Shown piece by piece: positions 18,636 through 59,020 of a stretch of DNA of 64,000 nt (positions within the stretch are counted from its first letter, which is position 1; the number at the start of each line of letters is the position of its first letter). Source of the DNA: a virus. Its lineage: Duplodnaviria > Caudoviricetes. A model generated the notes under the pieces. It saw nothing but the letters and a program-made list of their open reading frames with translations. It was not told the DNA's origin and searched no databases. The stretch covers positions 1,945-65,944 of the IMG/VR virus record IMGVR_UViG_3300030419_004766. One strand, written 5' to 3'. Position numbers and translations under genes: made by a program.

Positions 18636-18637
18636 CA

Positions 18638-24006: not shown

Positions 24007-24029
24007 CGTGCATCCACGTCTATTGGACG

Positions 24030-33969: not shown

Positions 33970-34982
33970 CCTACATACGAAGCTCATCATATAATAGTTA
34001 TGACTACTGTCAGCAACAGTATTATATAAATTATGTTTTGGGGTTTCCATCAACATCTGGTAAAAAAGCCCAACAGGGAACCATCGTCCACAAGGTGATG
34101 GAGTGTCTGTCTGCTTGCAAGAAAAGGTTGCAAAGTCTTCCAGAGTCTAGCTTGATGAGTGTCACAGATGACGCACTCGGAAGAATCACATTCACTCATA
34201 GCAAACTGTACTCAGACGAGTTTGTTGACAAGTTAGTGGATAAAAGCTTTGAGTATTATACGTCTAACTGCGTACACTCTTATACAGAAAAAGAAGAAAG
34301 AGAATGTCGCAAGTGGACATGGATGGGCCTACATTACAATGATGGCCAATTTGACCCCAGAAACAGAACCATTGTAGACACAGAACCACACTTTGACATT
34401 GAGATAGATGAGCCGTGGGCAGAATACGATTATACTCTTGGCGACGGAACAAAACTGAAGGGCAAACTAGCCATCAAGGGGACCATAGATCTAGTTACAG
34501 AGGTGGAAGACGGAGTAATAGAAGTTATAGATTGGAAGACGGGAAGAAGAATTAATTGGGCCACAGGCGAAGAAAAGGACTATAATAAATTAGAGAGTGA
34601 TCCACAATTACTTCTCTACTATTATGCTATATCAAAGCTATACCCTGATTACAATCAGGCTATAATGACTATTTTCTATATCAAAGATGGAGGACCATTC
34701 TCTCTATGCTTTGATGATGGAGCCAAAGATCTATTCCTAAAAATGCTTAGGAAAAGGTTTAATCAGATCAAGAACAACAAGGCTCCTCAGTTGCTTTCCC
34801 GCGAGCAAACTCACTGGAAATGCACAAGGCTTTGCGACTATTATAAGAATAACTGGGAAGGTACAGATACCAATGTTTGTAAATATGTTCAAGAGCATAT
34901 TAAGAAACATGGTATTGAAAGGACTACATCGGAGTGTACCAAACCAGACTTTAATATAGGGTATTATGATGCTCCCGGTTAA
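33960..34982 (+). CDS. PD-(D/E)XK exonuclease, Cas4/AddB-like with putative Fe-S staple
   Basis: GTIDL, DWKTG and QL..Y motifs; one N-terminal Cys plus C-terminal CxxxC...C. Confidence 0.75.
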   Translation: MLVAYIRSSSYNSYDYCQQQYYINYVLGFPSTSGKKAQQGTIVHKVMECLSACKKRLQSLPESSLMSVTDDALGRITFTHSKLYSDEFVDKLVDKSFEYYTSNCVHSYTEKEERECRKWTWMGLHYNDGQFDPRNRTIVDTEPHFDIEIDEPWAEYDYTLGDGTKLKGKLAIKGTIDLVTEVEDGVIEVIDWKTGRRINWATGEEKDYNKLESDPQLLLYYYAISKLYPDYNQAIMTIFYIKDGGPFSLCFDDGAKDLFLKMLRKRFNQIKNNKAPQLLSREQTHWKCTRLCDYYKNNWEGTDTNVCKYVQEHIKKHGIERTTSECTKPDFNIGYYDAPG

Positions 34983-35919
34983 ATATTTTTCTAATGATGA
35001 AGTAGCGGAAATAATTTCGGTTCCAGAGTGCGTAGAAGTAGTTGAGGATTTATTCAATAATATTGAAGATACTCAGATGCCACCCAAAGTGTATATGGAT
35101 ATACCGAATGGTGATTTCAGGTCTATGCCAGCAGTCGTTAAAAACACGGCTGGTATCAAGTGGTGCGGAGTACATCTAGACGAAACGGGCACAAAACGCA
35201 AAATTAATATTTTTGCAAAAGTTCTTATCAACGATATAGATTCTGGAAAGCTGTTAGCTATTCTAGATGGAGAGACCCTAACAGCTATCAGAACAGCCGC
35301 CGTAACTGGCGTTGCCACTAGACACTTATCCCCCAAATATGCAACCAAAGCCGCTTTTATTGGATGTGGAAACCAAACACTTAGACAAATAGAAGCCGTA
35401 CTCACCGTAAGAGATATCGAGGTTATTAAACTATTTGATCTTAGCGAAGACAGAGCTAATCAATTAAAAGACGAATTAAATTATTTAGAGGTGAGGCAGG
35501 GAAGTCCTATAGAAATACAAGTACACAACGACCTTGAAAATTGTCTGTGGGACGCCGACATAGTAACTACATTAACACCCTCACGCCAACCATTTGTCAA
35601 GTATAAATATCTCAAACCTGTAGTTCACATTAACGCTGTTGGAGCAGACGCAGAAGGAAAAAGAGAGCTACATCCATGCGTTCTTGAAAATGTGGACTTG
35701 GTATCGTATGATGAATGGGTTCAGTGTTCCCATTCTGGAGAGATACAGTATGCTCAAAAGAGTAAAATTTCACAAATATGGTGCCCAATATCAGAAGTGG
35801 TTCAAGGCAGAGTAGAAAAAAGTGGGTGCAGGACTACGCTATTCGATGCTACAGGATTAGCAATAGAGGACGTTGCGACAGCACGATATATTTATGAAAA
35901 GTTCAACAAACAAAAGTAA
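34966..35919 (+). CDS. Ornithine cyclodeaminase/mu-crystallin family protein (close to archaeal-type alanine dehydrogenase pattern)
   Basis: MPPKVY, GDFRSMPA, GIKW, RTAA, VGAD..GKREL and DATGLAIEDVA motifs. Confidence 0.88.
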   Translation: MMLPVKYFSNDEVAEIISVPECVEVVEDLFNNIEDTQMPPKVYMDIPNGDFRSMPAVVKNTAGIKWCGVHLDETGTKRKINIFAKVLINDIDSGKLLAILDGETLTAIRTAAVTGVATRHLSPKYATKAAFIGCGNQTLRQIEAVLTVRDIEVIKLFDLSEDRANQLKDELNYLEVRQGSPIEIQVHNDLENCLWDADIVTTLTPSRQPFVKYKYLKPVVHINAVGADAEGKRELHPCVLENVDLVSYDEWVQCSHSGEIQYAQKSKISQIWCPISEVVQGRVEKSGCRTTLFDATGLAIEDVATARYIYEKFNKQK

Positions 35920-36424
35920 TATTGTACAGGTCGACTTTACCGATGAGATGGTAGAGCGAGCTATAGATAAATCAAAATGGCTTGGGAAAATAAATAATTC
36001 TATTCTCAAGGGCAGGGGAAACTTTGCTGGTTTTCTCGGTGAGGAAATAGTTGCTGATTATATCCAAGCCGAGATAATCAGTAAAAGTAAAAGTGCAGAG
36101 AGATTTAACTATGATCTAATCAAGGGATCTCAAAAGATAGAAGTAAAATCTAAACGCAGGAAGGTTCCTCCTAAAGATTTTTATGATGCGTCTGTAGCAG
36201 AAACGAGCGCTCACCAAAGGCCGGATATATATATCTTTACCAGTATTCAATTTAAGAACCATAAACCTATTAGAGCTTGGATTTGTGGACAAAAGGACGC
36301 AAAGGAATACTTTCAACAGGCTAATTTTTATGCGGAGGGAGATATTGACCCCTCTAACGGTTGGAAAGTTTCTACCGATTGTCATAATTTGCCGTACAAG
36401 GATCTTGACCCAGTAGGACGCTGA
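35873..36424 (+). CDS. Restriction-endonuclease-like PD-(D/E)XK protein
   Basis: GE....YDL....IEVKSK pattern; start possibly ATG 35894. Confidence 0.5.
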   Translation: MRQHDIFMKSSTNKSNIVQVDFTDEMVERAIDKSKWLGKINNSILKGRGNFAGFLGEEIVADYIQAEIISKSKSAERFNYDLIKGSQKIEVKSKRRKVPPKDFYDASVAETSAHQRPDIYIFTSIQFKNHKPIRAWICGQKDAKEYFQQANFYAEGDIDPSNGWKVSTDCHNLPYKDLDPVGR

Positions 36425-36425
36425 A

Positions 36426-38345
36426 ATGCCAATTTGGACGCCGCTACACTTGCACACCCATTACAGTTTATTGGACGGTCTCTCAAAGCCCTCACAGGTC
36501 GCAGAACGCTGCTCGAACCTTGGGTACGATGCATGCGCCGTGACTGACCACGGGACGATCTCAGGGGCCGTTTCGTTCGTCAGGGCGATGAAAGCAAAAA
36601 ACATAAAGCCTATCCTTGGGTGTGAATTTTATTTGTGTGATCAAGACCCCTGCGTAAAAGACAAGAGTAATAGGCAGCTAAGCCATCTAGTAGTTCTGGC
36701 TAAAAATTTAAATGGTTGGAAAAAGTTGATAGAAGCAACTTCAGCCAGCAATGACGAAGAAGTCTTTTATCACAAACCGCGATTGGATCTCAATACTCTT
36801 GCTGAATACTGTGACGGAGATCTTATCAGTTTTTCTGGCCACATAGGGAGCCAGCTTGCAGATATTATATTCTCTGATAAAAAGTCTGCATATGGAGCAT
36901 CCACCTATGAAGAAGCCAAACAGTGCATAGACACAGACTGGCTTAACAAAACCACTCTGCTGGCTGAAAAATATAGAGATATTTTCGGCAACGGCAATTT
37001 CTTTTTAGAAATACAACTGATAGATCAAGATCAGTGTCCCGCTCAAAGAATTACTGCTGAAGCATTAAGGTATATCAGCAAGAAAACTGGAATACCGTGT
37101 GTTGCCACAGCAGATTCTCACTATTGCTCTTCCGAGGACGCTCCAGACCAGAGGGTTCTTCTATGCTCTTCCATGAGAACAACACTGAAGAAAGTAGAAG
37201 AAAAACTTAACAATTCTGAAGATGTTGGATTAGGCGGATTCTTTTGTTCAAATAGATATCACATTCCGACAGAAGAAGAAATTCAACAGATAAATACAGA
37301 AGCAGAAATTCATAACACCAAAACAATAGCTGACATGTGCGAGGACTATAACATTTTGGGAACACCAATGCTTCCAAAATTCTCTTGTCCAGACAACATG
37401 GCGGAAGACGAATACTTAAGGGTTCTTTGCAGGAGGGGATGGCAAGATAAACTAGTTGCTTCTGGAAAAGTATCAGGAGATGATAGATCTGAGTTGTATG
37501 CTGAAAAAATAAAAGAAGAGCTTTCAGTCATACAAGAAGCAAATCTATCCGGTTATTTCCTCATAGTTCAAGATATAGTAAATCATGTAAGAGAGCAGGG
37601 ATGGTTGCCGGGTCCGGGTCGAGGATCAGCAGCAGGTTGCTTAATATCCCATCTGATTGGTATAACAGAAGTAGACCCAATAGAATATGGTTTAATTTTT
37701 GAGAGATTTTACAACGCTGGTAGAAATACTGGAGGGCATATATCCCTGCCAGATATCGACATTGATGTTCCTACCAACAAGAGAGAATCTGTAATTGAAT
37801 ACATGCGTCAAAAATATGGAAGAGACAATGTTGGCCAGATGGTTACACTTGGCCGCATGCAAGGTAGAACCTCTTTAAAAGAAGTGTTGCGGGTTCATGA
37901 TGCGTGCAGTTACGAAGAAATGAATCAAATAACCAAAAATATTCCATCAGAAGCAGAGATATCAGACCAACTACAAGAAATGGAAGACCCCTCTATTATT
38001 AGGTGGGCTTTGATTAATCAACCTGACAGGCTTAGAGACTGGTGTCGGATGGAAGATGATGGCAGTCTAAGTGGAGACTTATCAAAACTATTTGAACAGG
38101 CCATTCGATTAGAAGGAACATATAAATCGCAAGGCAAGCACGCTGCTGGAGTAGTAATTTCTTCCGAAAACTTAAGCGAAGTGTGTCCAATGGTTAGAGA
38201 AAAAAGAGGATCAGAAAAAATAGCGGGCTTGGAAATGCAAGATTTAGAAGCTATGGGTCATGTTAAATTCGATATTCTTGGAATCAGCTTTCTTGACAAA
38301 ATTATGGGAGTATCCAATCAACTATCTACCGGAATAATTAAATGA
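36426..38345 (+). CDS. dnaE: DNA polymerase III alpha, N-terminal half (PHP + palm)
   Basis: HLHTHYSLLDG, TDHG, GRGSAAG, PDIDID, HAAGVVI and KFDILG motifs; ends 20 aa after KFDILG. Confidence 0.92.
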   Translation: MPIWTPLHLHTHYSLLDGLSKPSQVAERCSNLGYDACAVTDHGTISGAVSFVRAMKAKNIKPILGCEFYLCDQDPCVKDKSNRQLSHLVVLAKNLNGWKKLIEATSASNDEEVFYHKPRLDLNTLAEYCDGDLISFSGHIGSQLADIIFSDKKSAYGASTYEEAKQCIDTDWLNKTTLLAEKYRDIFGNGNFFLEIQLIDQDQCPAQRITAEALRYISKKTGIPCVATADSHYCSSEDAPDQRVLLCSSMRTTLKKVEEKLNNSEDVGLGGFFCSNRYHIPTEEEIQQINTEAEIHNTKTIADMCEDYNILGTPMLPKFSCPDNMAEDEYLRVLCRRGWQDKLVASGKVSGDDRSELYAEKIKEELSVIQEANLSGYFLIVQDIVNHVREQGWLPGPGRGSAAGCLISHLIGITEVDPIEYGLIFERFYNAGRNTGGHISLPDIDIDVPTNKRESVIEYMRQKYGRDNVGQMVTLGRMQGRTSLKEVLRVHDACSYEEMNQITKNIPSEAEISDQLQEMEDPSIIRWALINQPDRLRDWCRMEDDGSLSGDLSKLFEQAIRLEGTYKSQGKHAAGVVISSENLSEVCPMVREKRGSEKIAGLEMQDLEAMGHVKFDILGISFLDKIMGVSNQLSTGIIK

Positions 38346-38569
38346 CTAAAACAGATATCTATAAAAAGGTTATTATAGATGGGTCGGCAGTAGAATGTAA
38401 CAGATTGTCTTTATGCTGTATTAACGACTATATGAAATTTTCATCAAATAGAAATATTAGATATCAAGTGGATTGTGATGATTACAGATTAAAATTTAGC
38501 GAATTGTATGATGACATCCATGTCGCTGTTGAAAAATACATAGAAATAAAAAGAAAACTGTACAAATGA
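38342..38569 (+). CDS. Hypothetical protein
   Basis: ATGA-coupled to both neighbours. Confidence 0.55.
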   Translation: MTKTDIYKKVIIDGSAVECNRLSLCCINDYMKFSSNRNIRYQVDCDDYRLKFSELYDDIHVAVEKYIEIKRKLYK

Positions 38570-39090
38570 GATTAGACCACATCGCTTACAGAGTTTCTGA
38601 CAGAAAAAAAACTTCCAACTTTCTCAACGGAATACTTAAATATAAAGTTGAGACTGAATTTGACATTGTTTTCGATGATGGGTCTAAAGCTGATTGTATT
38701 GCTATGATCCCAAAAGAAAAAATGGACAATGTTCCATCAATAGAAGCTGGAGGACACAGACATGTTGCTCCAGAAATATTCGTATCAGACGGAGATGAAA
38801 ATTCGATTGTTGGAAAGTGGGTTGCCGAAAGAGGTGGTGTCGGGGGAGTCCACCACTTTGCTTATCAAGTGTTTGGTATAGATCGTGTCGTAAAAGAGTG
38901 GAGAGAAGAAGGAGTAGAATTTCTCACAGAAGAAGTGATCGACTGTCCTGAAGACGATCTAAGACAAATCTTTACAAAACCCCTTCCAGAATTAGGCGGG
39001 GTAATTATAGAACTAATAGAGCGGGGCCACAAAGGGTTCTGCCAAAACTCAGTAAAAAATCTAATGGAATCTACAAAGGAAGCAAAATGA
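38566..39090 (+). CDS. VOC-family metalloenzyme resembling the HPPD C-terminal domain
   Basis: LDHIA, GGVHHFAY, LRQIFTKP and IELIER..KGF motifs. Confidence 0.7.
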   Translation: MRLDHIAYRVSDRKKTSNFLNGILKYKVETEFDIVFDDGSKADCIAMIPKEKMDNVPSIEAGGHRHVAPEIFVSDGDENSIVGKWVAERGGVGGVHHFAYQVFGIDRVVKEWREEGVEFLTEEVIDCPEDDLRQIFTKPLPELGGVIIELIERGHKGFCQNSVKNLMESTKEAK

Positions 39091-40577
39091 CAACATACCA
39101 AATAACAAAGGGAATGCATTATATTAATGGTCGATTCGTCGATGGGGACGAAGAAAACTTATTTGATAGCGTTAATCCTGCTACGGGAAAAATAGTTGGA
39201 GCATTTCCACAGGCTTCTAAAGAGGAAGTTGAAAATGCTTACAGTTCTGCTAGAGGAGCTTTGAGTGAGTGGAGAAATTTAAGTAGATTTCAACGCGGCG
39301 ATTATTTTCTCAGAGTAGCCAGCCTAATAGAAAATAATAAAGAAGATATTGCAGAAATTATTAGTCTAGAGACTGGTAAAGTTTTTAATGAGTCTATTGC
39401 GGAAGTCAACGAGGCTTTGCATATGGCTCAATACGCTTTTAGCACAGGAAGGATGCCTTATGGAGAAGCAATCGCGTCTGAGCTACCTGAAAAGGACGCT
39501 TTTATGCTCAGGAAGCCCAAGGGTGTTGTTGCTATTGTTGCTCCTTTTAACTTTCCTTTCGCTATTGGAGGCTTCTGGTGCGCTGCACCGGCTCTTGTCG
39601 AAGGTAATACCGTTATTTTAAAACCAAGCGAAGATGTTCCTTGGGTTGGGCAGATTACTGCGGAGCTTTATAGAGAAGCTGGTTTTCCACCGGGCGTGTT
39701 TAATATGATTCATGGTGATGGTATGGTTGGAAACAGCCTTATAAAACAAGATGTAGACCATATTTGCTTTACCGGAAGCGCTGATGTAGGAATGCATGTT
39801 CGTAAAGTGTGTGCTGAAAGCTGGCACAAAACTTGTTCTTGTGAAATGGGAAGTAAATCAGCAGTAATTATCCATGAAGACGCCAATTATGACCTAGCAA
39901 TGGCGGCGTGTCTTGCCAGCGCTTTCAAACTGTCTGGTCAACGCTGCGTGTCTGCCGGTCGGATGATTGTCCACCGATCTCTATATGATAGATTTGCACA
40001 AGATTTTGCTTCTCTTGCCGCTAACGCTGTAACAGGAGACCCGTTTGACGATAACACATTTTACGGAAGCCTAATTAACGAACCCCAACTCCAAAGGGTT
40101 GAAGGGTTTAACAAAATGGTAGAGGAAGACCCAGAAGCAGAAGTGTTGTTGATGGGAGAACGCTTGGAAGGCGATGGCCTATTCTTAACACCCACTGTGT
40201 ACAAGACTGAGTGGAGAGATGTCCCTTATCTCAAGCAGGAGGTATTTGGACCTCATGTCTCTATTATTCCTTACGACACAGTAGATGATGCTATTCGCAT
40301 TTATAATGATACAGACTATGGACTTTCACTAGGAGTAGTAACGGAGAACTTTAAAATTGCCAGACGTATCCGTAATGAGTGTGATTTTGGTCTTGGTTAT
40401 TGGAACGGTGGCAGCATTGCGGCTGAGAGCCATCTGGGATTCGGAGGAGTGAAGAAGTCTGGAAACGGACAACCTAGCGCAGCCCGAACCTTCAGATCTG
40501 TTACACATGAAGTAGCTTGGACTGTCAATCACGGCGACTCTCTAAACTTTCCACAAGGCATGAAGACCGGTAGCTAA
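39087..40577 (+). CDS. Aldehyde dehydrogenase (candidate P6C/aminoadipate-semialdehyde or P5C dehydrogenase)
   Basis: PFNFP, LKPSE, FTGS, EMGSK, GQRC and EVFGP motifs. Confidence 0.9.
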   Translation: MTTYQITKGMHYINGRFVDGDEENLFDSVNPATGKIVGAFPQASKEEVENAYSSARGALSEWRNLSRFQRGDYFLRVASLIENNKEDIAEIISLETGKVFNESIAEVNEALHMAQYAFSTGRMPYGEAIASELPEKDAFMLRKPKGVVAIVAPFNFPFAIGGFWCAAPALVEGNTVILKPSEDVPWVGQITAELYREAGFPPGVFNMIHGDGMVGNSLIKQDVDHICFTGSADVGMHVRKVCAESWHKTCSCEMGSKSAVIIHEDANYDLAMAACLASAFKLSGQRCVSAGRMIVHRSLYDRFAQDFASLAANAVTGDPFDDNTFYGSLINEPQLQRVEGFNKMVEEDPEAEVLLMGERLEGDGLFLTPTVYKTEWRDVPYLKQEVFGPHVSIIPYDTVDDAIRIYNDTDYGLSLGVVTENFKIARRIRNECDFGLGYWNGGSIAAESHLGFGGVKKSGNGQPSAARTFRSVTHEVAWTVNHGDSLNFPQGMKTGS

Positions 40578-41377
40578 TGACCGATTTGTTGGTATGCAAT
40601 CCTGCATATTTTAACATAGACTACGAAATAAACCCTTGGATGGACATCGGAAACGATGTTGATCCCAGCTTAGCTTCTAGGCAATGGGAGAAGATGTGCT
40701 CTAGTCTAACTTTGATAGGAGCAAATTTAAAATATATTAAACCTATGTATGGATATCCAGACATGGTCTTTACGGCTAATGCTGGATTGGTACATGGCAA
40801 CACAATTATTCTCTCAAACTTCAAACACGGCGAACGCAGGGGCGAGAAAGCCTTTTTTAAAGATTGGTTTCTTAAAAATGGCTACAGGGTAGTAGAATTG
40901 CCAGACTCTATCTGCTTTGAAGGAGAGGGGGATGCCCTATTTTTTGAAGACACCCTGTTTATGGGATACGGTTTTAGAACCGATCTTGCATGCCATTCTA
41001 TTATATCTAAAGCTCTTGGCGTAGAAGTTATATCATGCGAATTAGTTGATCCAAGATTCTACCATTTAGACACATGCTTCCTCCCCATAAAAAACAGAAT
41101 TGTATATTACAGAGAGGCTTTTTCTCAAAGAAGCCAAGAAATCATGTTAAGAAAACTGGTTGATATTGGTAATGATACCGGAGAGCTTGACGTATTGAAC
41201 ATACACGAAGACCAAGCTAAAGACTTTCTCTGCAATAGTATAGAGGTAAACAATAAGATTCTCAGCCCATCAGACATGTTCTCACTGTCTTTTTCTGGCA
41301 GGGAAACTTTTACTTGTGATATGTCAGAGTTTATGAAGTCTGGAGGAGCCATCAAATGTCTAACTCTGAGGCTATAA
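40577..41377 (+). CDS. Amidinotransferase-superfamily enzyme, ArgZ/AgrE arginine-dihydrolase-like
   Basis: YEINPWM, PDMVFTANAGLV, FEGEGD, YHLDT and GGAIKCLTL motifs. Confidence 0.82.
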   Translation: MTDLLVCNPAYFNIDYEINPWMDIGNDVDPSLASRQWEKMCSSLTLIGANLKYIKPMYGYPDMVFTANAGLVHGNTIILSNFKHGERRGEKAFFKDWFLKNGYRVVELPDSICFEGEGDALFFEDTLFMGYGFRTDLACHSIISKALGVEVISCELVDPRFYHLDTCFLPIKNRIVYYREAFSQRSQEIMLRKLVDIGNDTGELDVLNIHEDQAKDFLCNSIEVNNKILSPSDMFSLSFSGRETFTCDMSEFMKSGGAIKCLTLRL

Positions 41378-42564
41378 GCACATTAAAAAAATACATCCTC
41401 GTTGACGGATTTCATGTTGTAGTAGACACAGCAAAGAGTATGGGTAGTTGGATTGTAGATGCAGATACAGGCAATAGATACTTGGATTGCTACTCTCAAT
41501 TTGCCAGTCAAGCGTTGGGTTGGAAAGACCCCGCTATGATATCCGCGCAAAAGGAGATGGGTCGCGCTGGCATGACAAAGATTGCTAACAGCGATATGTA
41601 CTCAGAAGAATACGCAAGGTTTGTTGAAAGCTTTACGTCCATCACTCCTGATTTTGAACATTATTTTTTTATTGATGGCGGGGCTTTAGCAGTAGAGAAC
41701 GCTCTAAAAGCTGCATTTGATTGGAAGGCTCAAAAACTGGGTTATAGCCACATTGTTGATATCAACAATCTAGACATCTTCCATCTCAAGAACGCATTTC
41801 ACGGGCGAACAGGATATACCCTTTCTCTCACTAACACTACTCCCGAAAAAACCGCGCTTTTTCCCAAGTTCAGATGGACTACCGTAGAGCCTGACTGCGA
41901 AGATATTGAAGCTCGGATACATGATGAGGTTGCTGCCATTATCGTGGAACCCATCCAAGGAGAAGGTGGAGACAACCACTTCCCGCAAGAGTTTTTCAAA
42001 AATTTAAGACGCATAGCAGATGAACACGATAGCCTTCTCATATTTGACGAAGTGCAAACAGGCATGGGGCTGACTGGAAAGATGTGGGCTTATGAACATT
42101 TCGACGTTGTACCAGACATGATGTGCTTCGGCAAGAAGACTCAAGTTTGCGGAGTATGTTCCACAAACAGAATAGACGAGGTAGAGAGCAATGTTTTTAC
42201 TACTTCCGGTCGTATTAATTCTACTTGGGGTGGCAATATTGTGGACATGGTTAGATCGAGACACATAATAGATGCTATTCAACAGCGAGATTTAGTACAA
42301 AACGCATCGCAAGTCGGTCAAGATCTTCTTAGACAATTGAGAAAACTTCCAGTAATAGACAATGTTCGTGGTAGAGGTCTTATGATTGCATTTGACTTGC
42401 CGGATGAGCAAATGCGAGACGGGATGATGTCACTTCTACAAGAGAACATGCTTGCTCTTAAGTCTGGCAATCGTTCAATTAGGCTAAGACCACCGCTGAC
42501 ATTTTCTTTCGAGGATGCGGAGTCGGCAAAGAACTTCATCTATGAGGCCATTACAAAACTATGA
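41356..42564 (+). CDS. lat: L-lysine 6-aminotransferase (class III PLP)
   Basis: GGALAVENALKAAFDWK, AFHGRTGYTLSLTNT, DEVQTG, FGKKTQVCG and STWGGN match mycobacterial/streptomycete LAT. Confidence 0.88.
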   Translation: MSNSEAISTLKKYILVDGFHVVVDTAKSMGSWIVDADTGNRYLDCYSQFASQALGWKDPAMISAQKEMGRAGMTKIANSDMYSEEYARFVESFTSITPDFEHYFFIDGGALAVENALKAAFDWKAQKLGYSHIVDINNLDIFHLKNAFHGRTGYTLSLTNTTPEKTALFPKFRWTTVEPDCEDIEARIHDEVAAIIVEPIQGEGGDNHFPQEFFKNLRRIADEHDSLLIFDEVQTGMGLTGKMWAYEHFDVVPDMMCFGKKTQVCGVCSTNRIDEVESNVFTTSGRINSTWGGNIVDMVRSRHIIDAIQQRDLVQNASQVGQDLLRQLRKLPVIDNVRGRGLMIAFDLPDEQMRDGMMSLLQENMLALKSGNRSIRLRPPLTFSFEDAESAKNFIYEAITKL

Positions 42565-43400
42565 AAATAAGAAACGTAGGGATAATAGGGCAAGGCTTTG
42601 TTGGGACAGCCTTAAGAGAAGTGTTCTCGTGTTACAACAAAGTGTATACTTACGATAAAGCTCATAAAGATCTTTCAACACACAAAGGAATATCCGATCT
42701 ATCATACTCTTGCGATGTGGTTTTTGTTTGTGTTCCAACACCAATGAAGCCAGACGGATCATGCGACACATCAATTGTTGAGGCTGTTTGTTTAGAGGCT
42801 TGCAGAACTGGAAGACAAAATATCATTGTCATCAAGTCTACAGTGCCTCCGGGGACCACCAAAAAAATCAACGAACAGTGTGTTAACTCCCAAGTGGTCT
42901 TTAATCCTGAGTTTCTTTTGGAAAGAAATGCAACTGAAGACTTTCGCAATACCACCCGTGTTATTCTAGGTGGACCCAGACCAGCGACAACTAGATTAAA
43001 ATGGTTTTACGCAAACGTTTTCCCCAAAGCTTCCATTGTGAAGACAGATTCAACTATAGCGGAATACGTGAAATATCTTACCAACTGCTTCTTATCTGTG
43101 AAAGTTTCTCTAGCCAACGAAATCTCGTCGATGTGTGAGGCAGACGGGGTTGACTACGACAAGGTGGTCGAATATGCTATATACGACAACCGGCTGGGGA
43201 ATTCTCATTGGTCGGTTCCCGGCCCAGATGGCAGTCTGGGATTCGGAGGAAGTTGTTTTCCAAAAGATCTCAACGCTTTAATACAACACGCAATAAGCAT
43301 TGGTGTGCCGCCCAATACTATGGTAGGGGCTTGGAATACCAACTTAACGGTAAGACCAGAAAAAGATTGGGAACAGCTTAAAGGGAGGGCTGTACAATGA
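42561..43400 (+). CDS. ugd: UDP-glucose/GDP-mannose dehydrogenase family (short form)
   Basis: GQGFVG, VCVPTP, IKSTVPPGT, FNPEFL and GFGGSCFPKD motifs. Confidence 0.85.
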   Translation: MKIRNVGIIGQGFVGTALREVFSCYNKVYTYDKAHKDLSTHKGISDLSYSCDVVFVCVPTPMKPDGSCDTSIVEAVCLEACRTGRQNIIVIKSTVPPGTTKKINEQCVNSQVVFNPEFLLERNATEDFRNTTRVILGGPRPATTRLKWFYANVFPKASIVKTDSTIAEYVKYLTNCFLSVKVSLANEISSMCEADGVDYDKVVEYAIYDNRLGNSHWSVPGPDGSLGFGGSCFPKDLNALIQHAISIGVPPNTMVGAWNTNLTVRPEKDWEQLKGRAVQ

Positions 43401-44491
43401 GAGCTATGATCTTTGGGGCTGGAAGAATGGGCCAACCCACAGCTTGGGCGATGGAGAAACTAGGCTATGAAATAGATCTAGTAGACCAATCCGAAGAGGC
43501 TTTAAAAAAGTGTTCGAGTATTTTAGACCAGTCACCAACCACACATTTGCTTAAAGACATCACCAGAGCAATTGTTAGACCGTATCCTGACGTTGTTATA
43601 TCTGCTCTACCATATCATCAAAATGAAATTATTGCAAACTACTGTATTAAGAATGGAGTTAGATATTGCGATTTGGGAGGCAACGAGGAGACAAGCCAAA
43701 GGATAAATGAGTTTGCCAAGAAGAGGGGTAGTAAACCCATAATGACTGACTTGGGTCTTGCGCCGGGATTGGTAAATATCATAACTGAAAACTTGTACAA
43801 ACAGATAGCATCAGAAGAAGAAAAGAACCCAGAGCGAGTCCTGATGATGGTAGGCGGTCTACCCAAACACGCTGACAAAGAAGACCACTTCAATTATTTG
43901 TGTAGTTGGTCTGTAGACGGACTTATTAATGAATACACAGAGCCAACAACTGTGTTAGACCAAGGAGTCCTCACCAGTGTCAACGCTTTGGATGGACACC
44001 AAGTGGTTTCAACCCAAAGCCTAGGCATGCTGGAAGCTTTTTATACTAGTGGCGGGCTATCGCACAGCCTTAATAGTCTGAAAGATTCAGGAGCCTCTAA
44101 CGTAGCTTACAAAACTCTTAGATGGCCGGGACATTTCAGGACTATAAAATTACTTATTGATAAATGCGACCTTGATAGAGAAACATTGAAAAATATTTTT
44201 ATAAAAAATTGCACCATGAAAAGTGAAGAGGATTGTGTTCTAATATATATAGCAATAGATGAAAAAATTCAGGAGATGCTAGTACCTCCTGATCAAAATT
44301 TTTCCGCCATGCAGCGTTGTACTGGGTATGGTGTTGCTTGTGCCGCCTCCTTAATAGGAGAGGGAGTTTATGACAAAGAATTTTCTCGCCAGCCGATCAA
44401 GCATGGAGATATCATCTTTGAAGATTTCAATAGCAAAATGGACGCTTTAGTAGTTGAAGACACGAAGGATTCTAACGATGAATTACAATGA
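43397..44491 (+). CDS. Saccharopine dehydrogenase / lysine 6-dehydrogenase family
   Basis: GAGRMG, YCDLGG, GLAPG, VGGLP, WSVDGLINEY, LEAFYTSGG and YKTLRWPGH motifs. Confidence 0.87.
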   Translation: MRAMIFGAGRMGQPTAWAMEKLGYEIDLVDQSEEALKKCSSILDQSPTTHLLKDITRAIVRPYPDVVISALPYHQNEIIANYCIKNGVRYCDLGGNEETSQRINEFAKKRGSKPIMTDLGLAPGLVNIITENLYKQIASEEEKNPERVLMMVGGLPKHADKEDHFNYLCSWSVDGLINEYTEPTTVLDQGVLTSVNALDGHQVVSTQSLGMLEAFYTSGGLSHSLNSLKDSGASNVAYKTLRWPGHFRTIKLLIDKCDLDRETLKNIFIKNCTMKSEEDCVLIYIAIDEKIQEMLVPPDQNFSAMQRCTGYGVACAASLIGEGVYDKEFSRQPIKHGDIIFEDFNSKMDALVVEDTKDSNDELQ

Positions 44492-45158
44492 TATTTGCGT
44501 TTTTGATTTTGAAACTGGAAGTAGAAATCCACACACAACACAGCCTATACAAATAGCAGCCGTTATGATACACGGTCGCAAGCTAACAGTACAGCCCAGC
44601 GGATATTTCGAATCTCTCATTAAACCCCTAGATGATGAAAAAGCTATTGCTTCTGGGGTAGACCCATTGGAAGATGAAGCCCTAGCAGTTAATGGCAAAA
44701 CCAAAGCAGAATTAGCGAAGGCCCCGCATTTAAAAACTGTTTGGGAAAGATTCACTAAGTTTGTAGAAAAGTTTAACTACAAAAAGGGGTCTTGGACGGC
44801 TCCAATTCCCGCTGGTCACAATATAAACAATTTTGACATGATCATCGTAAAGCGTTTATGTCAAGAATACGGGCCATTGGACAAAAAGAGAAATCAACAG
44901 GGGGTATTTCATGCTATCCACAGCATGGATTTAATGAACAATGTTTTTATGTGGACTGAAAACAATCCTGATATACGAAGCGTTAGTATGGATTCTATTA
45001 GGGACTGGATGGGAATCCCTAAAGATAATGCTCACGACGCTTTGCAAGACGTGAAGGATACAGCGTCAGTTCTCATAAAGTTTCTTAAACTATACAGACA
45101 CTTTGCTCCAAAGGTCATGTTCGAGAAGGCTCTTGCGGATGAAAAATTACGAATTTGA
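44478..45158 (+). CDS. DEDDh 3'-5' exonuclease (DnaQ/epsilon-like)
   Basis: DFETG, HNINNFD and HDALQD motifs; likely start at ATG 44478. Confidence 0.85.
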   Translation: MNYNDICVFDFETGSRNPHTTQPIQIAAVMIHGRKLTVQPSGYFESLIKPLDDEKAIASGVDPLEDEALAVNGKTKAELAKAPHLKTVWERFTKFVEKFNYKKGSWTAPIPAGHNINNFDMIIVKRLCQEYGPLDKKRNQQGVFHAIHSMDLMNNVFMWTENNPDIRSVSMDSIRDWMGIPKDNAHDALQDVKDTASVLIKFLKLYRHFAPKVMFEKALADEKLRI

Positions 45159-46824
45159 TTGTGGGTGTTCTTTCGAGGTTCTAGATGAAGATTCTAAAGA
45201 GACTATATCCCAAACAGGACTGCCGTCTATAAATTTCGACATCAAAAAGGCTAAGTATGACTGTGAAAAAACTTGGGGTTTGATCTGCTCTGGACAAACA
45301 AAAGGAGTATTTCAACTAGAAAGCAATTTGGGAAAATCTTGGGCGAAAAGAATCCGGCCAGTAAATATTGAAGAATTGGCGGCTCTTATAGCTTTAATTA
45401 GACCCGGATGCTTGAAGGCTATCATCGATGGAAAATCCATGACACAGCATTATGTAGATAGGAAAAATGGATCAGAAGCCATATCCTATCTTCATGATTC
45501 TCTAGAGCCTATATTGAAAACCACTCAAGGAGTTTTGGTTTATCAAGAGCAAAGTATGCAAATAGCCCAAGTGATAGCGGGCTTTAATCTACAGCAAGGC
45601 GACGATCTTAGAAAAGCTATCGGCAAAAAACAAGCTGGTTTGATGTCAGAAGTAAAAGATTCTTTTCTGGATGGAGCGGATAAAACTGGAATAGTTTCCA
45701 GAGATGTTGCTGAAGAAATTTTTGGTTGGATTGAAAAATCAAACCGGTACGCTTTTAACAAAAGCCATGCTGTTTCTTACGCCGTGTGTGCGTACTGGTC
45801 TGCATACGCCAAGGCTCATTTTCCAATCAATTTTTACTGCAATTACCTATTTTATGCCAATGGAAAACAAGACCCTCAATCTGAAATAAGAGAGCTTGTT
45901 AAGGATGCTAAAATATGTGGCATTCAAGTTTCCCCGCCTTCTATGACTAATATGGACTGCAAGTTTAGTATTAGAAATAAAGTTATAAATTTTGGATTCA
46001 ATGACATAAAATCCGTTGGAGAAAAACAGGTCAGCAAATTATTGCAAGTAATCAAAGATTCTGAAGAAGATTTGTCTAAACTAATAGCAGATTGGTCTTG
46101 GTACGAATTTCTTGTGAATGCCTCTCACAAGATTAACAAAAGCGTTGTCGTATCTCTTATTTCTGTAGGAGCCATGTCTCATTTTGGCCTTAGCCGCAAT
46201 GAAATGTTGTACGAATTCGAGACTTGGCAAAAGCTGACAGATAAAGAAAAGCAGTGGATTATAGAAAGACGAGACGATTGGGATTGTTTAATAGACGCTT
46301 TAACAAAAATGGCCCCAACCAGAAAGAATGGTGGCGGAACCTTTAACACAACTAGAAATTCTATTGTAGAAGATCTCATTCTCTTACTGAAGAACCCACC
46401 GTACTCAATCGAAGATAGTCCGGGTTGGGTTTCAAAAACTGAAAAAGAAGCACTGGGTGTAGCACTAACTTATTCCGAAGTGGATTCGTGCGATGTAAGT
46501 GGCTCAAATTCTACATGTAAAGAGTTTTTTGACGGCAAACGTGGTAATATAATCTTGGCGGTCCAAATTTCCAATTGCAATGAATACATTGTGAAAAATG
46601 GTAGGTCTAAAGGCCAACCCATGGGATTCCTTGCAGTGGAAGATAACACGGGGAGCTTGGATACCATTACTGTTTTTTGCGACCAATGGAAGCAATACAA
46701 GGGGCTGCTATACGAAGGGAATACGGTGCTACTTCATGGGAAATCCTCTGGAGAAGCATCCCCCGGAAAAAAACGATATCAGATCGACGACGGCTTTGTC
46801 GTTGAAAAAGTTTCTCAAATATAG
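45139..46824 (+). CDS. dnaE: DNA polymerase III alpha, C-terminal half (fingers, HhH, OB fold)
   Basis: GVFQLES, ALIRPG, LVYQEQ, LRKAIGKK, YAFNKSHAVSY and FLAVEDNTG motifs; likely start at ATG 45139. Confidence 0.92.
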   Translation: MKNYEFDCGCSFEVLDEDSKETISQTGLPSINFDIKKAKYDCEKTWGLICSGQTKGVFQLESNLGKSWAKRIRPVNIEELAALIALIRPGCLKAIIDGKSMTQHYVDRKNGSEAISYLHDSLEPILKTTQGVLVYQEQSMQIAQVIAGFNLQQGDDLRKAIGKKQAGLMSEVKDSFLDGADKTGIVSRDVAEEIFGWIEKSNRYAFNKSHAVSYAVCAYWSAYAKAHFPINFYCNYLFYANGKQDPQSEIRELVKDAKICGIQVSPPSMTNMDCKFSIRNKVINFGFNDIKSVGEKQVSKLLQVIKDSEEDLSKLIADWSWYEFLVNASHKINKSVVVSLISVGAMSHFGLSRNEMLYEFETWQKLTDKEKQWIIERRDDWDCLIDALTKMAPTRKNGGGTFNTTRNSIVEDLILLLKNPPYSIEDSPGWVSKTEKEALGVALTYSEVDSCDVSGSNSTCKEFFDGKRGNIILAVQISNCNEYIVKNGRSKGQPMGFLAVEDNTGSLDTITVFCDQWKQYKGLLYEGNTVLLHGKSSGEASPGKKRYQIDDGFVVEKVSQI

Positions 46825-47789: not shown

Positions 47790-48284
47790 ATGAAATCTGA
47801 AAAACTATCTGAAGATCCTGAGACGCAGCTAGTCGATGAACATTATGGACTAGTTGTGTCTCAGGCTATTCGGCTATCTTCTCAACAAAGTGATCTAGAA
47901 GATTACATGCAGGTTGGCTTTATAGGTCTTTTAAAAGCTATAAGAAATTACAATCCTGAAAAAAGTCAATTTTCTACTTTTGCTACGGTTTGCATAAGAA
48001 ACGAAATCTTCAGGTATATGAGGAAAAACAAGAAAAAGACTTCAAACTTTTACATCAAAAAAGATAACCACTATACCACTAAAGAGCAATTGTGGGAATT
48101 AGTGCCAGATTGTTTAACAGAAAAAGAAAAATTGGTCCTGCAAATGAAAGCTGAGAACTACACACACAAAGAAATAGCAGAAAAGCTGTCTTGTCCCAAA
48201 GGACAAATAAAACATATAGTTAGAAAAATCATAGACATAACGAGAAAATGTTATCGTGAGGAAAAAGAGGATACTTCTTTGTAA
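47790..48284 (+). CDS. RNA polymerase sigma factor (sigma-70 family)
   Basis: DYMQVGFIGLLKAIRNY and FSTFATVCIRNEI (region 2); YTHKEIAEKL (region 4). Confidence 0.88.
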   Translation: MKSEKLSEDPETQLVDEHYGLVVSQAIRLSSQQSDLEDYMQVGFIGLLKAIRNYNPEKSQFSTFATVCIRNEIFRYMRKNKKKTSNFYIKKDNHYTTKEQLWELVPDCLTEKEKLVLQMKAENYTHKEIAEKLSCPKGQIKHIVRKIIDITRKCYREEKEDTSL

Positions 48285-49929
48285 CGAAGCTTCGTTTTTA
48301 AACACAGGCTACGCTACATATGGCCGAGAGGTCATGAAAAGGCTTTATAGCTCCGACAAGTATGAGCTTGCGGAGCTATCTATATATGCACACCCAAAAG
48401 AACCTAGATTACAAGACATACCTTGGGTCACATACCCTAATGCTCCTATTCCTAGCAACAAAGAAGCCGTAAGTCATTACAATTCTAATGGCGTGTACCA
48501 ATTTGGAGAATGGCGATTTGAAGAGGTTCTGTTAGATTTTAAACCAGATATCGTTTTTGACATCAGAGATTTCTGGATGTTAGAATTCGAAGAAAGATCT
48601 CCTTTTCGAGACTTATTCCACTGGGTGATCATGCCTACAGTGGACGCAGAAGGGCAAAACGAACAGTGGCTAGCTACATACGCTAACGCAGACGCGGTCT
48701 TCACATATTCTGATTGGGCGGTGAAGACATTGGATAAAGAGGGAGGAGGGGCAATCAAGTGCTTAGGTAGTGCGCCCCCTTCTGCCGACGAGGTGTACAT
48801 GCCAATTGAAGACAGGGATCAAAATAGACAATCTTTAGGTTTAAGTCCCGATGCAAAAATCGTTGGGACAATAATGAGAAACCAACGGCGAAAATTGTTT
48901 CCAGACCTATTTGAATCATTTAAAAAGTTTCTCGATTCTTATAACAACAGCAATGCTTTCCTGTATTGTCACACCAGCTATCCCGACGTTGGGTGGGACA
49001 TTCCCAAACTATTAAAAGAGCACGGACTTTGCAGTAGAGTTCTTTTTACTTATGTTTGTGAGTTTTGCGAACATATTTTTCCATCATTCTTCCACGACGC
49101 TGTTGCCAAATGTCCTAGGTGTGGAGAATTCAAATGTGGACTAGCAAATGTGCAAAGAGGAGCTTCTCCAGAGTTCCTAGCTAGAATTATTAATACGTTT
49201 GATTTATATGTTCAGTACGCTAACAGCGAAGGATTTGGGCTACCACAAGTAGAGGCGGCTGCTTGTGGAGTTCCTGTCATGTCGGTAGATTATTCTGCAA
49301 TGGATAGCGTAATCAGAAAACTTGGCGGAACTCCTCTAAAATTGAAGACTAAATATCTAGAGTTAGAAACAGGATGTAGACGAGCAGTTCCAGATAACGA
49401 CTATACAGCGAAAAAATTTGCAGAGTTCTTCGAATTGTCGGACGAAGAACAGCTTGAACTGGGTAAAAAATCAAGAGAAAGTTTTCTCAAAAATTATCAA
49501 TACGATGAAACGGCAAAGAAATGGGCGGATCACTTTGACTCCGTAGAAATAAAAGAAGGTGTTTGGGAATCGCCCCCAAAACTACACAACCCATCCACAT
49601 CAGTTCCCAACGGTTTGAATAATCGAGATATTGCCAAGTGGCTTATAATAAATGTTCTGGGAGAGCCAGATAAATTAGATACATATTTAGAAGCTCGCCT
49701 CATAAGAGATTTGAACTATGGCGTTTTTATAGAAGGCACAAGCAGCCTGTATTTCAACGAAGACTCGTTTGCCTATGGCAGACCAGCTTTTAGAGAATTT
49801 AATCTACAAGAAGCATACAATCAATTAGCAGAACTCCGAGAACGCAAAAACTATTGGGAACAGAGACGAACAGGAATGATTCAAGAACCAAGACCACCAT
49901 GGATGCCCAATAATGTTTCCAGTATTTAA
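48256..49929 (+). CDS. Glycosyltransferase family 4 with zinc-finger insertion
   Basis: RNQRRK, SEGFGLPQVEAAACG, and CEFC...CPRC motifs. Confidence 0.85.
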   Translation: MRKKRILLCNEASFLNTGYATYGREVMKRLYSSDKYELAELSIYAHPKEPRLQDIPWVTYPNAPIPSNKEAVSHYNSNGVYQFGEWRFEEVLLDFKPDIVFDIRDFWMLEFEERSPFRDLFHWVIMPTVDAEGQNEQWLATYANADAVFTYSDWAVKTLDKEGGGAIKCLGSAPPSADEVYMPIEDRDQNRQSLGLSPDAKIVGTIMRNQRRKLFPDLFESFKKFLDSYNNSNAFLYCHTSYPDVGWDIPKLLKEHGLCSRVLFTYVCEFCEHIFPSFFHDAVAKCPRCGEFKCGLANVQRGASPEFLARIINTFDLYVQYANSEGFGLPQVEAAACGVPVMSVDYSAMDSVIRKLGGTPLKLKTKYLELETGCRRAVPDNDYTAKKFAEFFELSDEEQLELGKKSRESFLKNYQYDETAKKWADHFDSVEIKEGVWESPPKLHNPSTSVPNGLNNRDIAKWLIINVLGEPDKLDTYLEARLIRDLNYGVFIEGTSSLYFNEDSFAYGRPAFREFNLQEAYNQLAELRERKNYWEQRRTGMIQEPRPPWMPNNVSSI

Positions 49930-50197
49930 AGACAAAACAGGATTTGAAATAACGTTTAATAACGAGGTTACAGTCTCTGTAGAATGGGATTCTTTCAGTG
50001 GCGACCTTGCCTCTGCAAGAGCTTCTCACTCTAAAACTGGAGATTTACACGTCACAAGTTTTGAGAAACAGTACGAAGAAGGTAGCTACACCATTAAAGG
50101 TCTATCGCCTGATCAGCTTCTTAAATTTTTGAACAAGTCTTGCAGTATGCGATTTACAGAAGAAGGCGAACAGTGCGTAGCTTTTTTTGACTTTTAA
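49913..50197 (+). CDS. Hypothetical protein
   Basis: 94-aa ORF. Confidence 0.5.
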   Translation: MFPVFKDKTGFEITFNNEVTVSVEWDSFSGDLASARASHSKTGDLHVTSFEKQYEEGSYTIKGLSPDQLLKFLNKSCSMRFTEEGEQCVAFFDF

Positions 50198-50210
50198 ATA
50201 GATAGAAGAA

Positions 50211-51344
50211 ATGAAAATACTTTTTATCGGCGCTTACAGAGATGGAACGGGGTGGGGTCAAGCTGCGATTGACTACATACTGTCAATGGATCGCGTTGGT
50301 CTAGACGTTGTATGCAGACCGTTGAAGCTGAATCAAAATAATTACGAAATTCCAGAGAGAATATCTGAACTTGAACAGAAGCCTATGAAGGGCGCTAATA
50401 TTTGTATACAGAATGTCCTGCCTCACTACCTAGACTACAATGGGCATTTTGATAAAAATATAGCTCTTTATTTTACAGAAACCGACTCTTTTAAAAATGC
50501 TGTCTGGCCACAAAGAATTAACGCCATGGACGAAGCGTGGGTGGCTTGCGACCAAATGGTGAAGGCTTCACAAAACAGTGGCGTGACCATACCCATCAAA
50601 ACAATTCCATGTGCATCAGATACCAGTAAATTTGACGAGTCAAGACCCAATTTTAATATCCCAGATTTAAATGATACGTTTTCATTTTATTTTATCGGGG
50701 ATATGGTTAGAAGAAAAAACCTTGTAGCTCTACTAAAAGCTTTCCACTTAGAATTTGATACATCAGAAAATGTATCATTGATGATAAAAACTACAAAATA
50801 CGACACAAGTCCAGAAGAAACAATGCAGCATGTGAAAAGCATGTGCAACCAAATAAAAGAAAATCTCAAGATATACCCATCTATAGATAAATATAAATAC
50901 GAATTGATAGTAACAGATCACGTCACAGAAGAAGAGATGCTCAGCCTTCACGAAACTTGTGACTGCTTTGTTATGCCTAGCTTTGGAGAAGCTTGGTGTA
51001 TACCAGCTTTTGACGCTATGGGTTTTGGCAACACCCCCATCTGCTCCAACGTAGGAGGTCCATCAGACTTTTTGAAGAGCGGTGGAGGATTCTTGGTTCC
51101 AGCCAAAGCAGAGCCTGTATTTGGGATGCTAGAAACTTTCAACGACATATATACAGGTCATGAAAATTGGTGGAATATAGATATACGGGCGTTGCAAAAA
51201 GACATGAGGAATGTCTTTGAGATGTGGAAGAACGACAAGTCATCTTATGAAGAGATTCAAAAACAGGGTCGTTTGTCGGCTGAACAGTACTCCTATGAAA
51301 ACATAGGTCTTCTTATTAAAAAAGAGCTAGAAAATGCCAGTTAG
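50211..51344 (+). CDS. Glycosyltransferase family 4
   Basis: RRKNL and MPSFGEAWCIPAFDAMGFG motifs. Confidence 0.85.
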   Translation: MKILFIGAYRDGTGWGQAAIDYILSMDRVGLDVVCRPLKLNQNNYEIPERISELEQKPMKGANICIQNVLPHYLDYNGHFDKNIALYFTETDSFKNAVWPQRINAMDEAWVACDQMVKASQNSGVTIPIKTIPCASDTSKFDESRPNFNIPDLNDTFSFYFIGDMVRRKNLVALLKAFHLEFDTSENVSLMIKTTKYDTSPEETMQHVKSMCNQIKENLKIYPSIDKYKYELIVTDHVTEEEMLSLHETCDCFVMPSFGEAWCIPAFDAMGFGNTPICSNVGGPSDFLKSGGGFLVPAKAEPVFGMLETFNDIYTGHENWWNIDIRALQKDMRNVFEMWKNDKSSYEEIQKQGRLSAEQYSYENIGLLIKKELENAS

Positions 51345-53053: not shown

Positions 53054-53520
53054 GAATAAATTTAATGTGGGGTGATGGACAACCACTTTCTGGATATGTA
53101 AATGTTGATCCGCACAGATACATGGAAGAAGGTATTATTAATTCAGACGTAACAAATCTGGACGATATAGTTGGAAATTCTGAAGCAACTGAGATTGTAG
53201 CTAGTGACGTTATAGATTATCTCCCCAAGGATATGGCGCAAAAGGCAATAGCTCACTGGGTTGGAAAGTTAAGACACAAAGGTAGGATAATCATAGGCGG
53301 TCACGATCTTTACGAGATATCTAAAATTGTATCTCAAAAGGGCATTGATGTAGATGAAGTTTCTGGAATCATACACGGATCGCAAAATCAACCTTGGGAA
53401 TTCAAAACTAGCCACACCACAGCACCCAAGCTGGCCGCACAGCTAGAGCAGCACGGACTAAAGATTCTAAAGAAAAGGGTCAGCGGGTTTAAAATGATCG
53501 TAGAGGCTGTAAGACCATGA
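53050..53520 (+). CDS. Methyltransferase-like protein
   Basis: RINL..G...GYVNVD and LRHKGRI patterns. Confidence 0.6.
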   Translation: MRINLMWGDGQPLSGYVNVDPHRYMEEGIINSDVTNLDDIVGNSEATEIVASDVIDYLPKDMAQKAIAHWVGKLRHKGRIIIGGHDLYEISKIVSQKGIDVDEVSGIIHGSQNQPWEFKTSHTTAPKLAAQLEQHGLKILKKRVSGFKMIVEAVRP

Positions 53521-55840: not shown

Positions 55841-55841
55841 A

Positions 55842-59019: not shown

Positions 59020-59020
59020 C

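Follow-up and report, generated by a model that had tools for sequence, protein, structure and literature searches.

The arginine succinyltransferase (AST) pathway of E. coli and Pseudomonas, encoded by astCADBE, employs a guanidino dihydrolase that sets free CO2 and two NH3 (AstB), an omega-aminotransferase (AstC) and a semialdehyde dehydrogenase (AstD) to arrive at glutamate, and the cyanobacterial ornithine-ammonia cycle includes ArgZ/AgrE, where AgrE follows a logic of ArgZ plus cyclodeaminase. Bacterial lysine catabolism proceeds by a lysine aminotransferase (LAT, Rv3290c type) or a lysine dehydrogenase (LysDH) together with Pcd. Among viruses, auxiliary metabolic genes (AMGs) usually contribute just one step to the metabolism of nucleotides, carbon, phosphorus or sulfur, and multi-gene modules are represented by the chlorovirus polyamine pathway and the carbon-metabolism genes of cyanophages. 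Here a run of overlapping enzyme genes is described from 64,000 nt of viral DNA (IMG/VR record IMGVR_UViG_3300030419_004766, positions 1,945–65,944; this whole stretch is called the window). The run is viewed as an auxiliary metabolic cassette belonging to a clade of large uncultured marine bacteriophages and has at its core three genes for an aldehyde dehydrogenase (ALDH), an ArgZ-like dihydrolase and a LAT-family aminotransferase. We infer from these genes all of the substrates, which way the flux runs and how the phage profits.

An ORF check found all genes named here on the + strand of the window. The first core gene (39087–40577) encodes an NAD(P)-dependent ALDH of 496 aa (PF00171 Aldedh, 426 bits), the second (40577–41377) a 266-aa guanidino hydrolase of the ArgZ/AgrE type, predicted to be an arginine dihydrolase (NF052232, 251 bits), and the third (41356–42564) a class III aminotransferase of the LAT family in a short form of 402 aa (TIGR03251, 489 bits). 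Directly upstream lies the gene of a single-module metalloenzyme of the vicinal oxygen chelate (VOC) fold, 174 aa long (38566–39090; Glyoxalase_4, 29.7 bits, and a match to the 4HPPD C-terminus), and downstream follow a short NAD dehydrogenase resembling UDP-glucose dehydrogenase (UGDH), with 279 aa and the domains PF03721 and PF00984 only (42561–43400), and an accessory of the saccharopine dehydrogenase (SDH) family, a LysDH-like protein of the PH1688 type with 364 aa (43397–44491; PF03435 Sacchrp_dh_NADP and PF16653 Sacchrp_dh_C). From VOC through ALDH, ArgZ, LAT and UGDH to SDH the genes overlap by 4, 1, 22, 4 and 4 nt, the overlaps of 1 and 22 nt coupling the core triad. A further accessory, an NAD(P) enzyme of the ornithine cyclodeaminase (OCD)/mu-crystallin family with 317 aa (34966–35919; PF02423, 235 bits compared with a gathering threshold of 24), is not contiguous with the cassette. 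Since the family matches of the run have E-values of 1e-16 to 1e-147, chance ORFs are ruled out, and the coordinates, overlaps and family assignments bear out the first-pass annotation of this DNA, which had placed five enzymes together with a ugd gene in one coupled run at 38566–44491 and an OCD-family gene at 34966.

When compared with the AST pathway, the core has the same succession of a dihydrolase, a class III omega-aminotransferase and a putative semialdehyde dehydrogenase, but it is virus-encoded and recruited from other families. No match to AstA, AstB-type proteins or AstE appeared in Pfam/NCBIfam scans of the cassette genes, succinyl protection is absent, the dihydrolase belongs to the ArgZ type, the aminotransferase is LAT-type (161 bits to ArgD/AstC, cut-off 610 bits) and the ALDH stays under the AstD cut-off (TIGR03240, 281 vs 579); the likeness is one of analogy only. 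With cyanobacterial ArgZ/AgrE the dihydrolase shares a homologous N-domain and the Asn/Glu/His/Cys set, and a cyclodeaminase-like partner is present in the same genome, but the phage protein is stand-alone, the partner is a separate OCD/mu-crystallin protein closest to archaeal alanine dehydrogenase (AlaDH), and what follows in the phage version is LAT and ALDH in place of PutA. Bacterial lysine catabolism resembles the locus in that a LAT-family protein, a PH1688-like dehydrogenase and an ALDH occur in one run, and differs in that the phage LAT is a short form (400–402 aa), the ALDH is not of the Pcd/ALDH7 type and an arginine dihydrolase is an obligate partner. The viral modules mentioned above likewise encode consecutive steps of host pathways; they are biosynthetic or belong to central carbon metabolism, whereas the cassette is a predicted amino-acid catabolic chain that moves as a unit between positions.

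The composition of the cassette was surveyed in the 80 best ArgZ loci of IMG/VR, 21 of which carry the block and form the basis of the counts that follow. ALDH (61–92% identity), ArgZ and LAT were found in every cassette locus and always in that order, while the VOC gene and the short UGDH were each found in 17 and the LysDH-like gene in eight; an OCD gene was located no more than 10 kb from the cassette in six. L113 and L115 lack both the VOC gene and the short UGDH, L116 and L118 lack the short UGDH, and the latter gene is also part of the cassette in L013. The conserved unit is ALDH-ArgZ-LAT, with the SDH and OCD genes as accessories. The gene set initially proposed for this region, an arginine/lysine module in which these two had been listed on a par with the others, was correct as to the enzyme identities but not in its emphasis. 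Two additions were observed in other lineages: a 121-aa ORF between ALDH and ArgZ with a weak SET-domain match (L109:9639–10004, with an equivalent ORF in L111; 28 bits, cut-off 22.4), and a class I fructose-bisphosphate aldolase (PF00274, 341 bits) in eight of 16 compared loci, though not in the window, which lies one to two genes from the cassette in three lineages (L114:924–1898; L013:12436–13404; and, beside LAT/SDH, L116/L118).

In the window the cassette sits between the halves of a split DnaE, the N-terminal half (36426–38345) with PHP and pol III alpha NTPase domains (PF02811, PF07733) and the C-terminal half (45103–46824) with finger and HHH domains (PF17657, PF14579). A 75-aa open frame (38342–38569), conserved in the window clade (cluster c37) and called in independent assemblies, bridges DnaE-N and the VOC gene by 4-nt overlaps, and on the downstream side the cassette is flanked by a DEDD exonuclease (RNase_T/epsilon-like, PF00929; 44454–45158). 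In the split DnaE the domains are laid out in such a way that an intein has no space, no dedicated intein search having been made, and a scan for promoters and terminators gave counts at chance level. The insertion site varies: in the window clade it is between DnaE-N and the exonuclease, in L113 and L115 between two glycosyltransferase genes that adjoin each other in the window, in L103–L114 and L117 between an unknown 134-aa gene and a DUF2784 gene, and in L013, L116 and L118 in still other contexts. The cassette is thereby found at three or more positions in genomes otherwise sharing gene order, from which it follows that the block behaves as one mobile functional unit. The exonuclease lies between the DnaE halves in every relative, and since L113 and L115 have DnaE-N, exonuclease and DnaE-C directly in succession, the three-gene polymerase looks ancestral, with the cassette inserted later between DnaE-N and the exonuclease. 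The window has its own copy of the 134-aa gene (24054–24458), just downstream of a tRNA-Arg(TCT) (23933–24007), the sole tRNA gene of the window, which directly follows PhoH.

The ratio dN/dS, computed from unsaturated synonymous sites only, was 0.04–0.11 for OCD, VOC, ALDH, LAT and the short UGDH (0.06–0.08 for the last of these), and the cassette is under strong purifying selection. A comparison of the window with L100:8511–11985 showed ALDH and LAT to be 92% and 93% identical (dS 0.35–0.56), while ArgZ between them is only 67% identical with dS saturated, which suggests allele replacement or recombination of ArgZ alone inside the cassette. A search with LAT returned more than 120 clusters at 68–80% identity, all of 400–402 aa and from marine metagenomes, single clusters being present on up to 107 contigs, and by this abundance the cassette is common in the ocean.

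The DNA that carries the cassette belongs to a phage. The whole 64 kb is co-oriented and encodes rIIB, PhoH, a UvsX-like recombinase, ribonucleotide reductase, DnaB, primase, ThyX, dNMP kinase, SSB and a sigma factor; within the window neither a capsid nor a portal gene could be recognised, the relatives are UViGs of IMG/VR, and no near-identical DNA was found among cultured phages. The first-pass annotation had raised the concern that this segment might prove to be a phage-host chimera. Apart from the enzymes being of typical cellular metabolic families there is little to recommend such a view, whether as an assembly chimera or as host DNA inside a phage contig, and we consider it extremely improbable. 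The exact ArgZ-like protein is present on at least 14 contigs with identical gene order and junctions from independent ENA, JGI, NCBI and Logan/Tara assemblies, a lineage at ~70% identity has the same order, again between the DnaE halves, and relatives at 50–90% amino-acid identity retain it too. The GC content of the run (0.40–0.43) equals that of its flanks (0.39–0.40), all the genes are co-oriented and overlapping, and the nearest cellular ArgZ homologues are only 38–44% identical. In addition, the cassette is carried by a relative of 161 kb (G002) that is 100% complete according to CheckV and has a large terminase. These independent assemblies, the order conserved in relatives and the complete G002 exclude the chimera.

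For the protein annotated as ArgZ-like, alignment and catalytic residues uphold the designation. It aligns end to end with Sll1336 ArgZ and the N-domain of Alr4995 AgrE (203–209 bits, ~45% identity) and over its full length with PDB entries 6JV0, 6JUY and 6LRF (6JUZ has Ser at the Asn position), and the catalytic set is complete, with N68 (in TANAG), E115, H163 and C261 invariant across ten homologues. The C-terminal domain to which the N-domain is fused in the ~700-aa proteins is lacking from the 266-aa phage protein. In a quick IQ-TREE phylogeny of 151 rows the cassette-linked ArgZ proteins fall together in one long-branched clade (SH-aLRT 100), and outside this clade ArgZ-like genes are found on 47 other viral contigs and at 81 cellular loci (80 genome_contigs loci and L017). 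In two of the bacteria, Herbaspirillum chlorophenolicum and a gammaproteobacterial metagenome-assembled genome, a stand-alone ArgZ-like gene lies 57–76 bp from a bona fide ornithine aminotransferase gene (TIGR01885, 498 and 515 with a cut-off of 378), which provides a cellular precedent for passing from ArgZ to an omega-aminotransferase.

For the third core gene the LAT assignment was equally upheld. TIGR03251 gives 488.9 bits, just under its cut-off of 520.8 and far above the next family (221), and in the PDB the M. tuberculosis LAT (2CIN) gives 378 bits compared with 156 for the next protein. The motifs FHGR, FGKKTQVCGV and RxRPPLT are kept, as are the PLP lysine and two substrate arginines, and, compared with the M. 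tuberculosis enzyme of 449 aa, ~30 aa are deleted from the protein. A solitary LAT-family gene of 420 aa, 55% identical to that of the window, was seen in a 595-kb uncultured huge phage (L179, LR756511.1, 9977–11239), with no ALDH, ArgZ or other cassette gene within 10 kb of it. The ALDH contains the catalytic residues K179, E253, C287 and E385 but is equidistant (227–321 bits) from ~25 curated subfamilies and far under all of their cut-offs, so that its substrate cannot be read from the sequence. In particular, the Pcd-type ALDH originally proposed was not recovered, as the protein scores 270 vs 730 with the Pcd model NF050084, and it is no better matched by the P5C dehydrogenase model PRK03137 (296 vs 648).

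The triad is invariant and translationally coupled and repeats the logic of AstB-AstC-AstD; in three steps it would turn an omega-guanidino or omega-amino amino acid into the corresponding dicarboxylic one. The most economical reading is one in which arginine would be converted to ornithine, glutamate semialdehyde and glutamate, an AST-like route assembled from other enzyme families, and lysine would enter by LAT or LysDH. We give this reading a probability of about 0.5. The ArgZ-like enzyme would split arginine at its guanidino group into ornithine, CO2 and two NH3 by hydrolysis, the LAT-family enzyme would transfer the terminal amino group from ornithine (or lysine) onto 2-oxoglutarate and yield glutamate and a semialdehyde, and the ALDH would oxidise the semialdehyde to glutamate (or 2-aminoadipate) with formation of NAD(P)H. 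From one arginine and one 2-oxoglutarate, two glutamate, two NH3, CO2 and NAD(P)H would be obtained, and overall ammonium, glutamate and reducing power would be drawn from the basic amino acids of the host during infection.

Several observations weigh against this reading. The 251 bits of the ArgZ-like protein with NF052232 are below the curated cut-off of 450, and an M. tuberculosis DDAH model scores nearly as high (222 bits, cut-off 300). The aminotransferase is ~50% identical to the M. tuberculosis lysine enzyme and 28–30% to ornithine aminotransferases, which makes ornithine as its substrate an assumption, and the ALDH reaches no cut-off for a glutamate-semialdehyde, P5C, AstD or P6C dehydrogenase. 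The scheme also gives no role to the VOC protein and the short UGDH, though both are conserved members. Finally, the cassette arrangement was found at none of the 80 nearest cellular ArgZ loci, so that no characterised operon can serve as a template. The sole cellular locus that had all three genes of the triad inside 6 kb (L044, Verrucomicrobiales) was discarded, the orientation being opposite and the neighbours uninformative.

Of the two accessories, the SDH-like protein is closest to L-lysine 6-dehydrogenase, as judged by a profile search of the PDB in which 3ABI was matched over its full length with 132.7 bits, saccharopine reductases/AASS with 57–71 and CASDH with 25. The structure 3ABI is that of an L-lysine 6-dehydrogenase (PMC10413350). 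The earlier designation as SDH/LysDH thereby stands, with PH1688 as nearest relative, and a polyamine (CASDH) function was rejected for this gene (25 bits vs 133 for LysDH). It would provide an ammonia-releasing entry for lysine, which would end at 2-aminoadipate. The record of L116 (G003) has two SDH/LysDH-like paralogues (95886–96893 and 18027–19121), 43% and 32% identical to the one in the window, and only one of them lies beside the cassette. The second accessory had been called OCD-family, and PF02423 supports the family, but not an ornithine cyclodeaminase: no NCBIfam subfamily cut-off is reached, the best being archaeal AlaDH (212 vs 409), and the best PDB match is the alanine dehydrogenase of A. 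fulgidus (1OMO, 180 bits) with P. putida OCD at 81. It adjoins the cassette in L116, and in G002, where no SDH is present, a homologue with 63% identity is situated ~100 kb from the cassette; its retention alongside the cassette genes in this complete genome fits an AgrE-like combination of ArgZ and cyclodeaminase. In the favoured AST-like route it may open a branch from ornithine to proline, or perform another deamination step.

Lysine might instead be the main substrate. LAT and/or LysDH would then make aminoadipate semialdehyde and ALDH 2-aminoadipate, and after transamination the HPPD-like VOC protein would turn 2-oxoadipate into 2-hydroxyglutarate by an oxidative decarboxylation of the HglS type, which the short UGDH would convert to 2-oxoglutarate, leaving ArgZ as a parallel nitrogen add-on. 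All five common genes receive a role in this way, and the 378 bits of the aminotransferase to M. tuberculosis LAT and the proximity of the SDH-like protein to LysDH speak in its favour, as do some traits of the VOC protein. The latter has invariant H5, E70, H96/H97 and E149, with a His/His/Glu set, and the signature QIFTKP...ELIER...GFC of the C-terminus of 4-hydroxyphenylpyruvate dioxygenase (HPPD) and hydroxymandelate synthase (HMS). In an AlphaFold2 model (pLDDT 91) compared by Foldseek, the C-domains of HPPD/HMS were the best matches over the whole length (TM(query) 0.71–0.76), but the best E-value (1e-10) was obtained with methylmalonyl-CoA epimerase (MMCE), which also leads the profile matches in the PDB (45 bits; HPPDs 40–42 bits). 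The protein falls below the cut-offs of both TIGR01263 for HPPD (38 vs 277 bits) and TIGR03081 for MMCE (35.6 vs 115). It is one 174-aa module rather than two VOC domains and, to judge from sequence and model, combines an MMCE-like core with features like those of the HPPD/HMS C-domain. Of the HPPD-like VOC enzyme noted before, the C-terminal signature and the fold of the C-domain were confirmed, but a full HPPD was not.

An HglS/DUF1338 relationship of the VOC protein was looked for with Pfam, the PDB profile search and Foldseek and was not detected, and as an MMCE-type epimerase the protein fits equally well or better. Together with an ALDH that is not Pcd-type (270 vs 730), the invariance of ArgZ compared with a LysDH in only eight of 21 loci, the cassettes of L113/L115 and L116/L118 that do without the short UGDH (the first two also without VOC), and the lack of anything to support a 2-hydroxyacid substrate for a UGDH-type active site, this makes a lysine-centred pathway unlikely. 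The VOC family is small (509 representatives in 1.8 billion proteins), and the cellular contexts of its relatives, a hyp operon and miscellaneous genes, gave no lead.

The gene first annotated as ugd is present within the run but is no ordinary ugd, since the encoded protein ends at residue 279 after the central domain and has no UDP-binding C-terminal domain (PF03720). All 13 aligned short homologues have this length, the Rossmann motif GxGxxG is intact (GIIGQGFVG), T99/T100, E117, K171, N175, C232 and D236 are invariant in the 13 sequences, and TIGR03026 is matched with 190.3 vs 189.8. In the ESM Atlas ~30 clusters of a 280–293-aa UGDH form were found, almost all of them viral, and the predicted model of the window protein has a pLDDT <50 from residue 209, in the central domain. 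From its sequence it is a conserved cassette member, not an incidental sugar gene, and a virus-specific short form with all the predicted catalytic residues.

Catalytic residues kept and UDP binding lost suggest that this enzyme may have taken up a new substrate, which would agree with a biosynthetic function of the cassette: the production of a non-standard amine, aldehyde or amino/imino acid (e.g. proline, pipecolate or a tailored building block) for decorating glycans, virions or DNA, with VOC and short UGDH as tailoring enzymes. Pipecolate is known to be made by LAT together with a reductase. In L113 and L115 glycosyltransferase genes enclose the triad, the cassette of the window is inside a replication module near ThyX and dNMP kinase, and the phage has a very large repertoire for glycan synthesis. 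However, the position differs between relatives in what looks like alternative insertion sites within a conserved gene order, no ligase, transferase or carrier gene is part of the cassette, the three core enzymes are of families best known from catabolism, and the ALDH would destroy the P5C/P6C needed for proline or pipecolate. A biosynthetic cassette thus seems a rather improbable solution. The glycan regions of the window (2584–8360, 16748–17761 and 48256–63977) contain many GT1, GT2 and GT47-like glycosyltransferases, a nucleotide-sugar epimerase, two nucleotidyltransferases (one fused to HAD), several methyltransferases and a sugar C-methyltransferase (PF08484, 170 bits).

Many viral contigs of no close relationship, and cultured jumbo phages too, have an ArgZ-like gene by itself, and removal of guanidino groups may therefore be useful in itself. 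Among cultured phages, Ralstonia phage RsoM2USA (L011) and Xanthomonas phage phiXF1 (L012) have the gene but no cassette. The solitary genes point to host takeover or counter-defence, by which arginine, lysine or derivatives such as polyamines and signalling molecules would be depleted and the products would be immaterial. Depletion does not need a strictly conserved, translationally coupled chain of three steps, and no defence-related genes are linked to the cassette, for which reasons we regard this explanation as very unlikely. Stand-alone ArgZ/DDAH-like genes are widespread among unrelated viral contigs (L119–L177, as well as L011 and L012), with records of 245–511 kb and a giant-virus bin (GVMAG) among them, and are distributed over several clades, all separate from that of the cassette.

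Two trypsin-like peptidase proteins of 734 and 315 aa are encoded elsewhere in the window (12258–14462 and 15304–16251), and L013 likewise encodes a Trypsin_2 protein, M19 and M10 peptidases and two DUF1501 proteins. The idea that the two proteins of the window help to supply amino acids was dropped, as they look like envelope or lysis proteins.

Taken further, the two conserved enzymes that the AST-like route leaves over could complete a self-contained, mobile virus pathway from arginine and lysine to glutamate or 2-oxoglutarate and ammonium, with a half-size HPPD-like oxygenase at the HglS step and a UGDH devoid of its UDP domain acting on a non-nucleotide substrate, both without cellular counterpart. 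We find this extended version unlikely. If true, no amino-acid catabolic pathway encoded by a virus would have preceded it, and it would be one abundant in ocean phages.

Literature full-text searches retrieved no description of such a multi-step cassette for amino-acid breakdown in a virus, in line with the first-pass annotation, which knew of none, and the main text of the 2024 global-ocean AMG catalogue mentions neither lysine nor ornithine; single genes may be contained in supplementary AMG tables. The locus represents a genuine phage cassette that is conserved, mobile and abundant; known enzyme families are joined in it in a combination not seen in cells, as judged by the 80 nearest cellular ArgZ loci, and it includes virus-specific enzyme forms. 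Three enzyme variants of the cassette are worth biochemistry, the short LAT, the UGDH without UDP-binding domain and the stand-alone HPPD/MMCE-like VOC protein, and the locus shows that a split replicative polymerase can accommodate a metabolic cassette between its two parts. If the favoured AST-like reading is true, the phages have, in a conserved chain of three to seven genes, the means to degrade the two common amino acids richest in nitrogen, infected marine bacteria would be redirected towards setting free ammonium, glutamate and reducing power out of the arginine and lysine that they contain, and the finding would bear on the regeneration of nitrogen in the ocean by infected cells.

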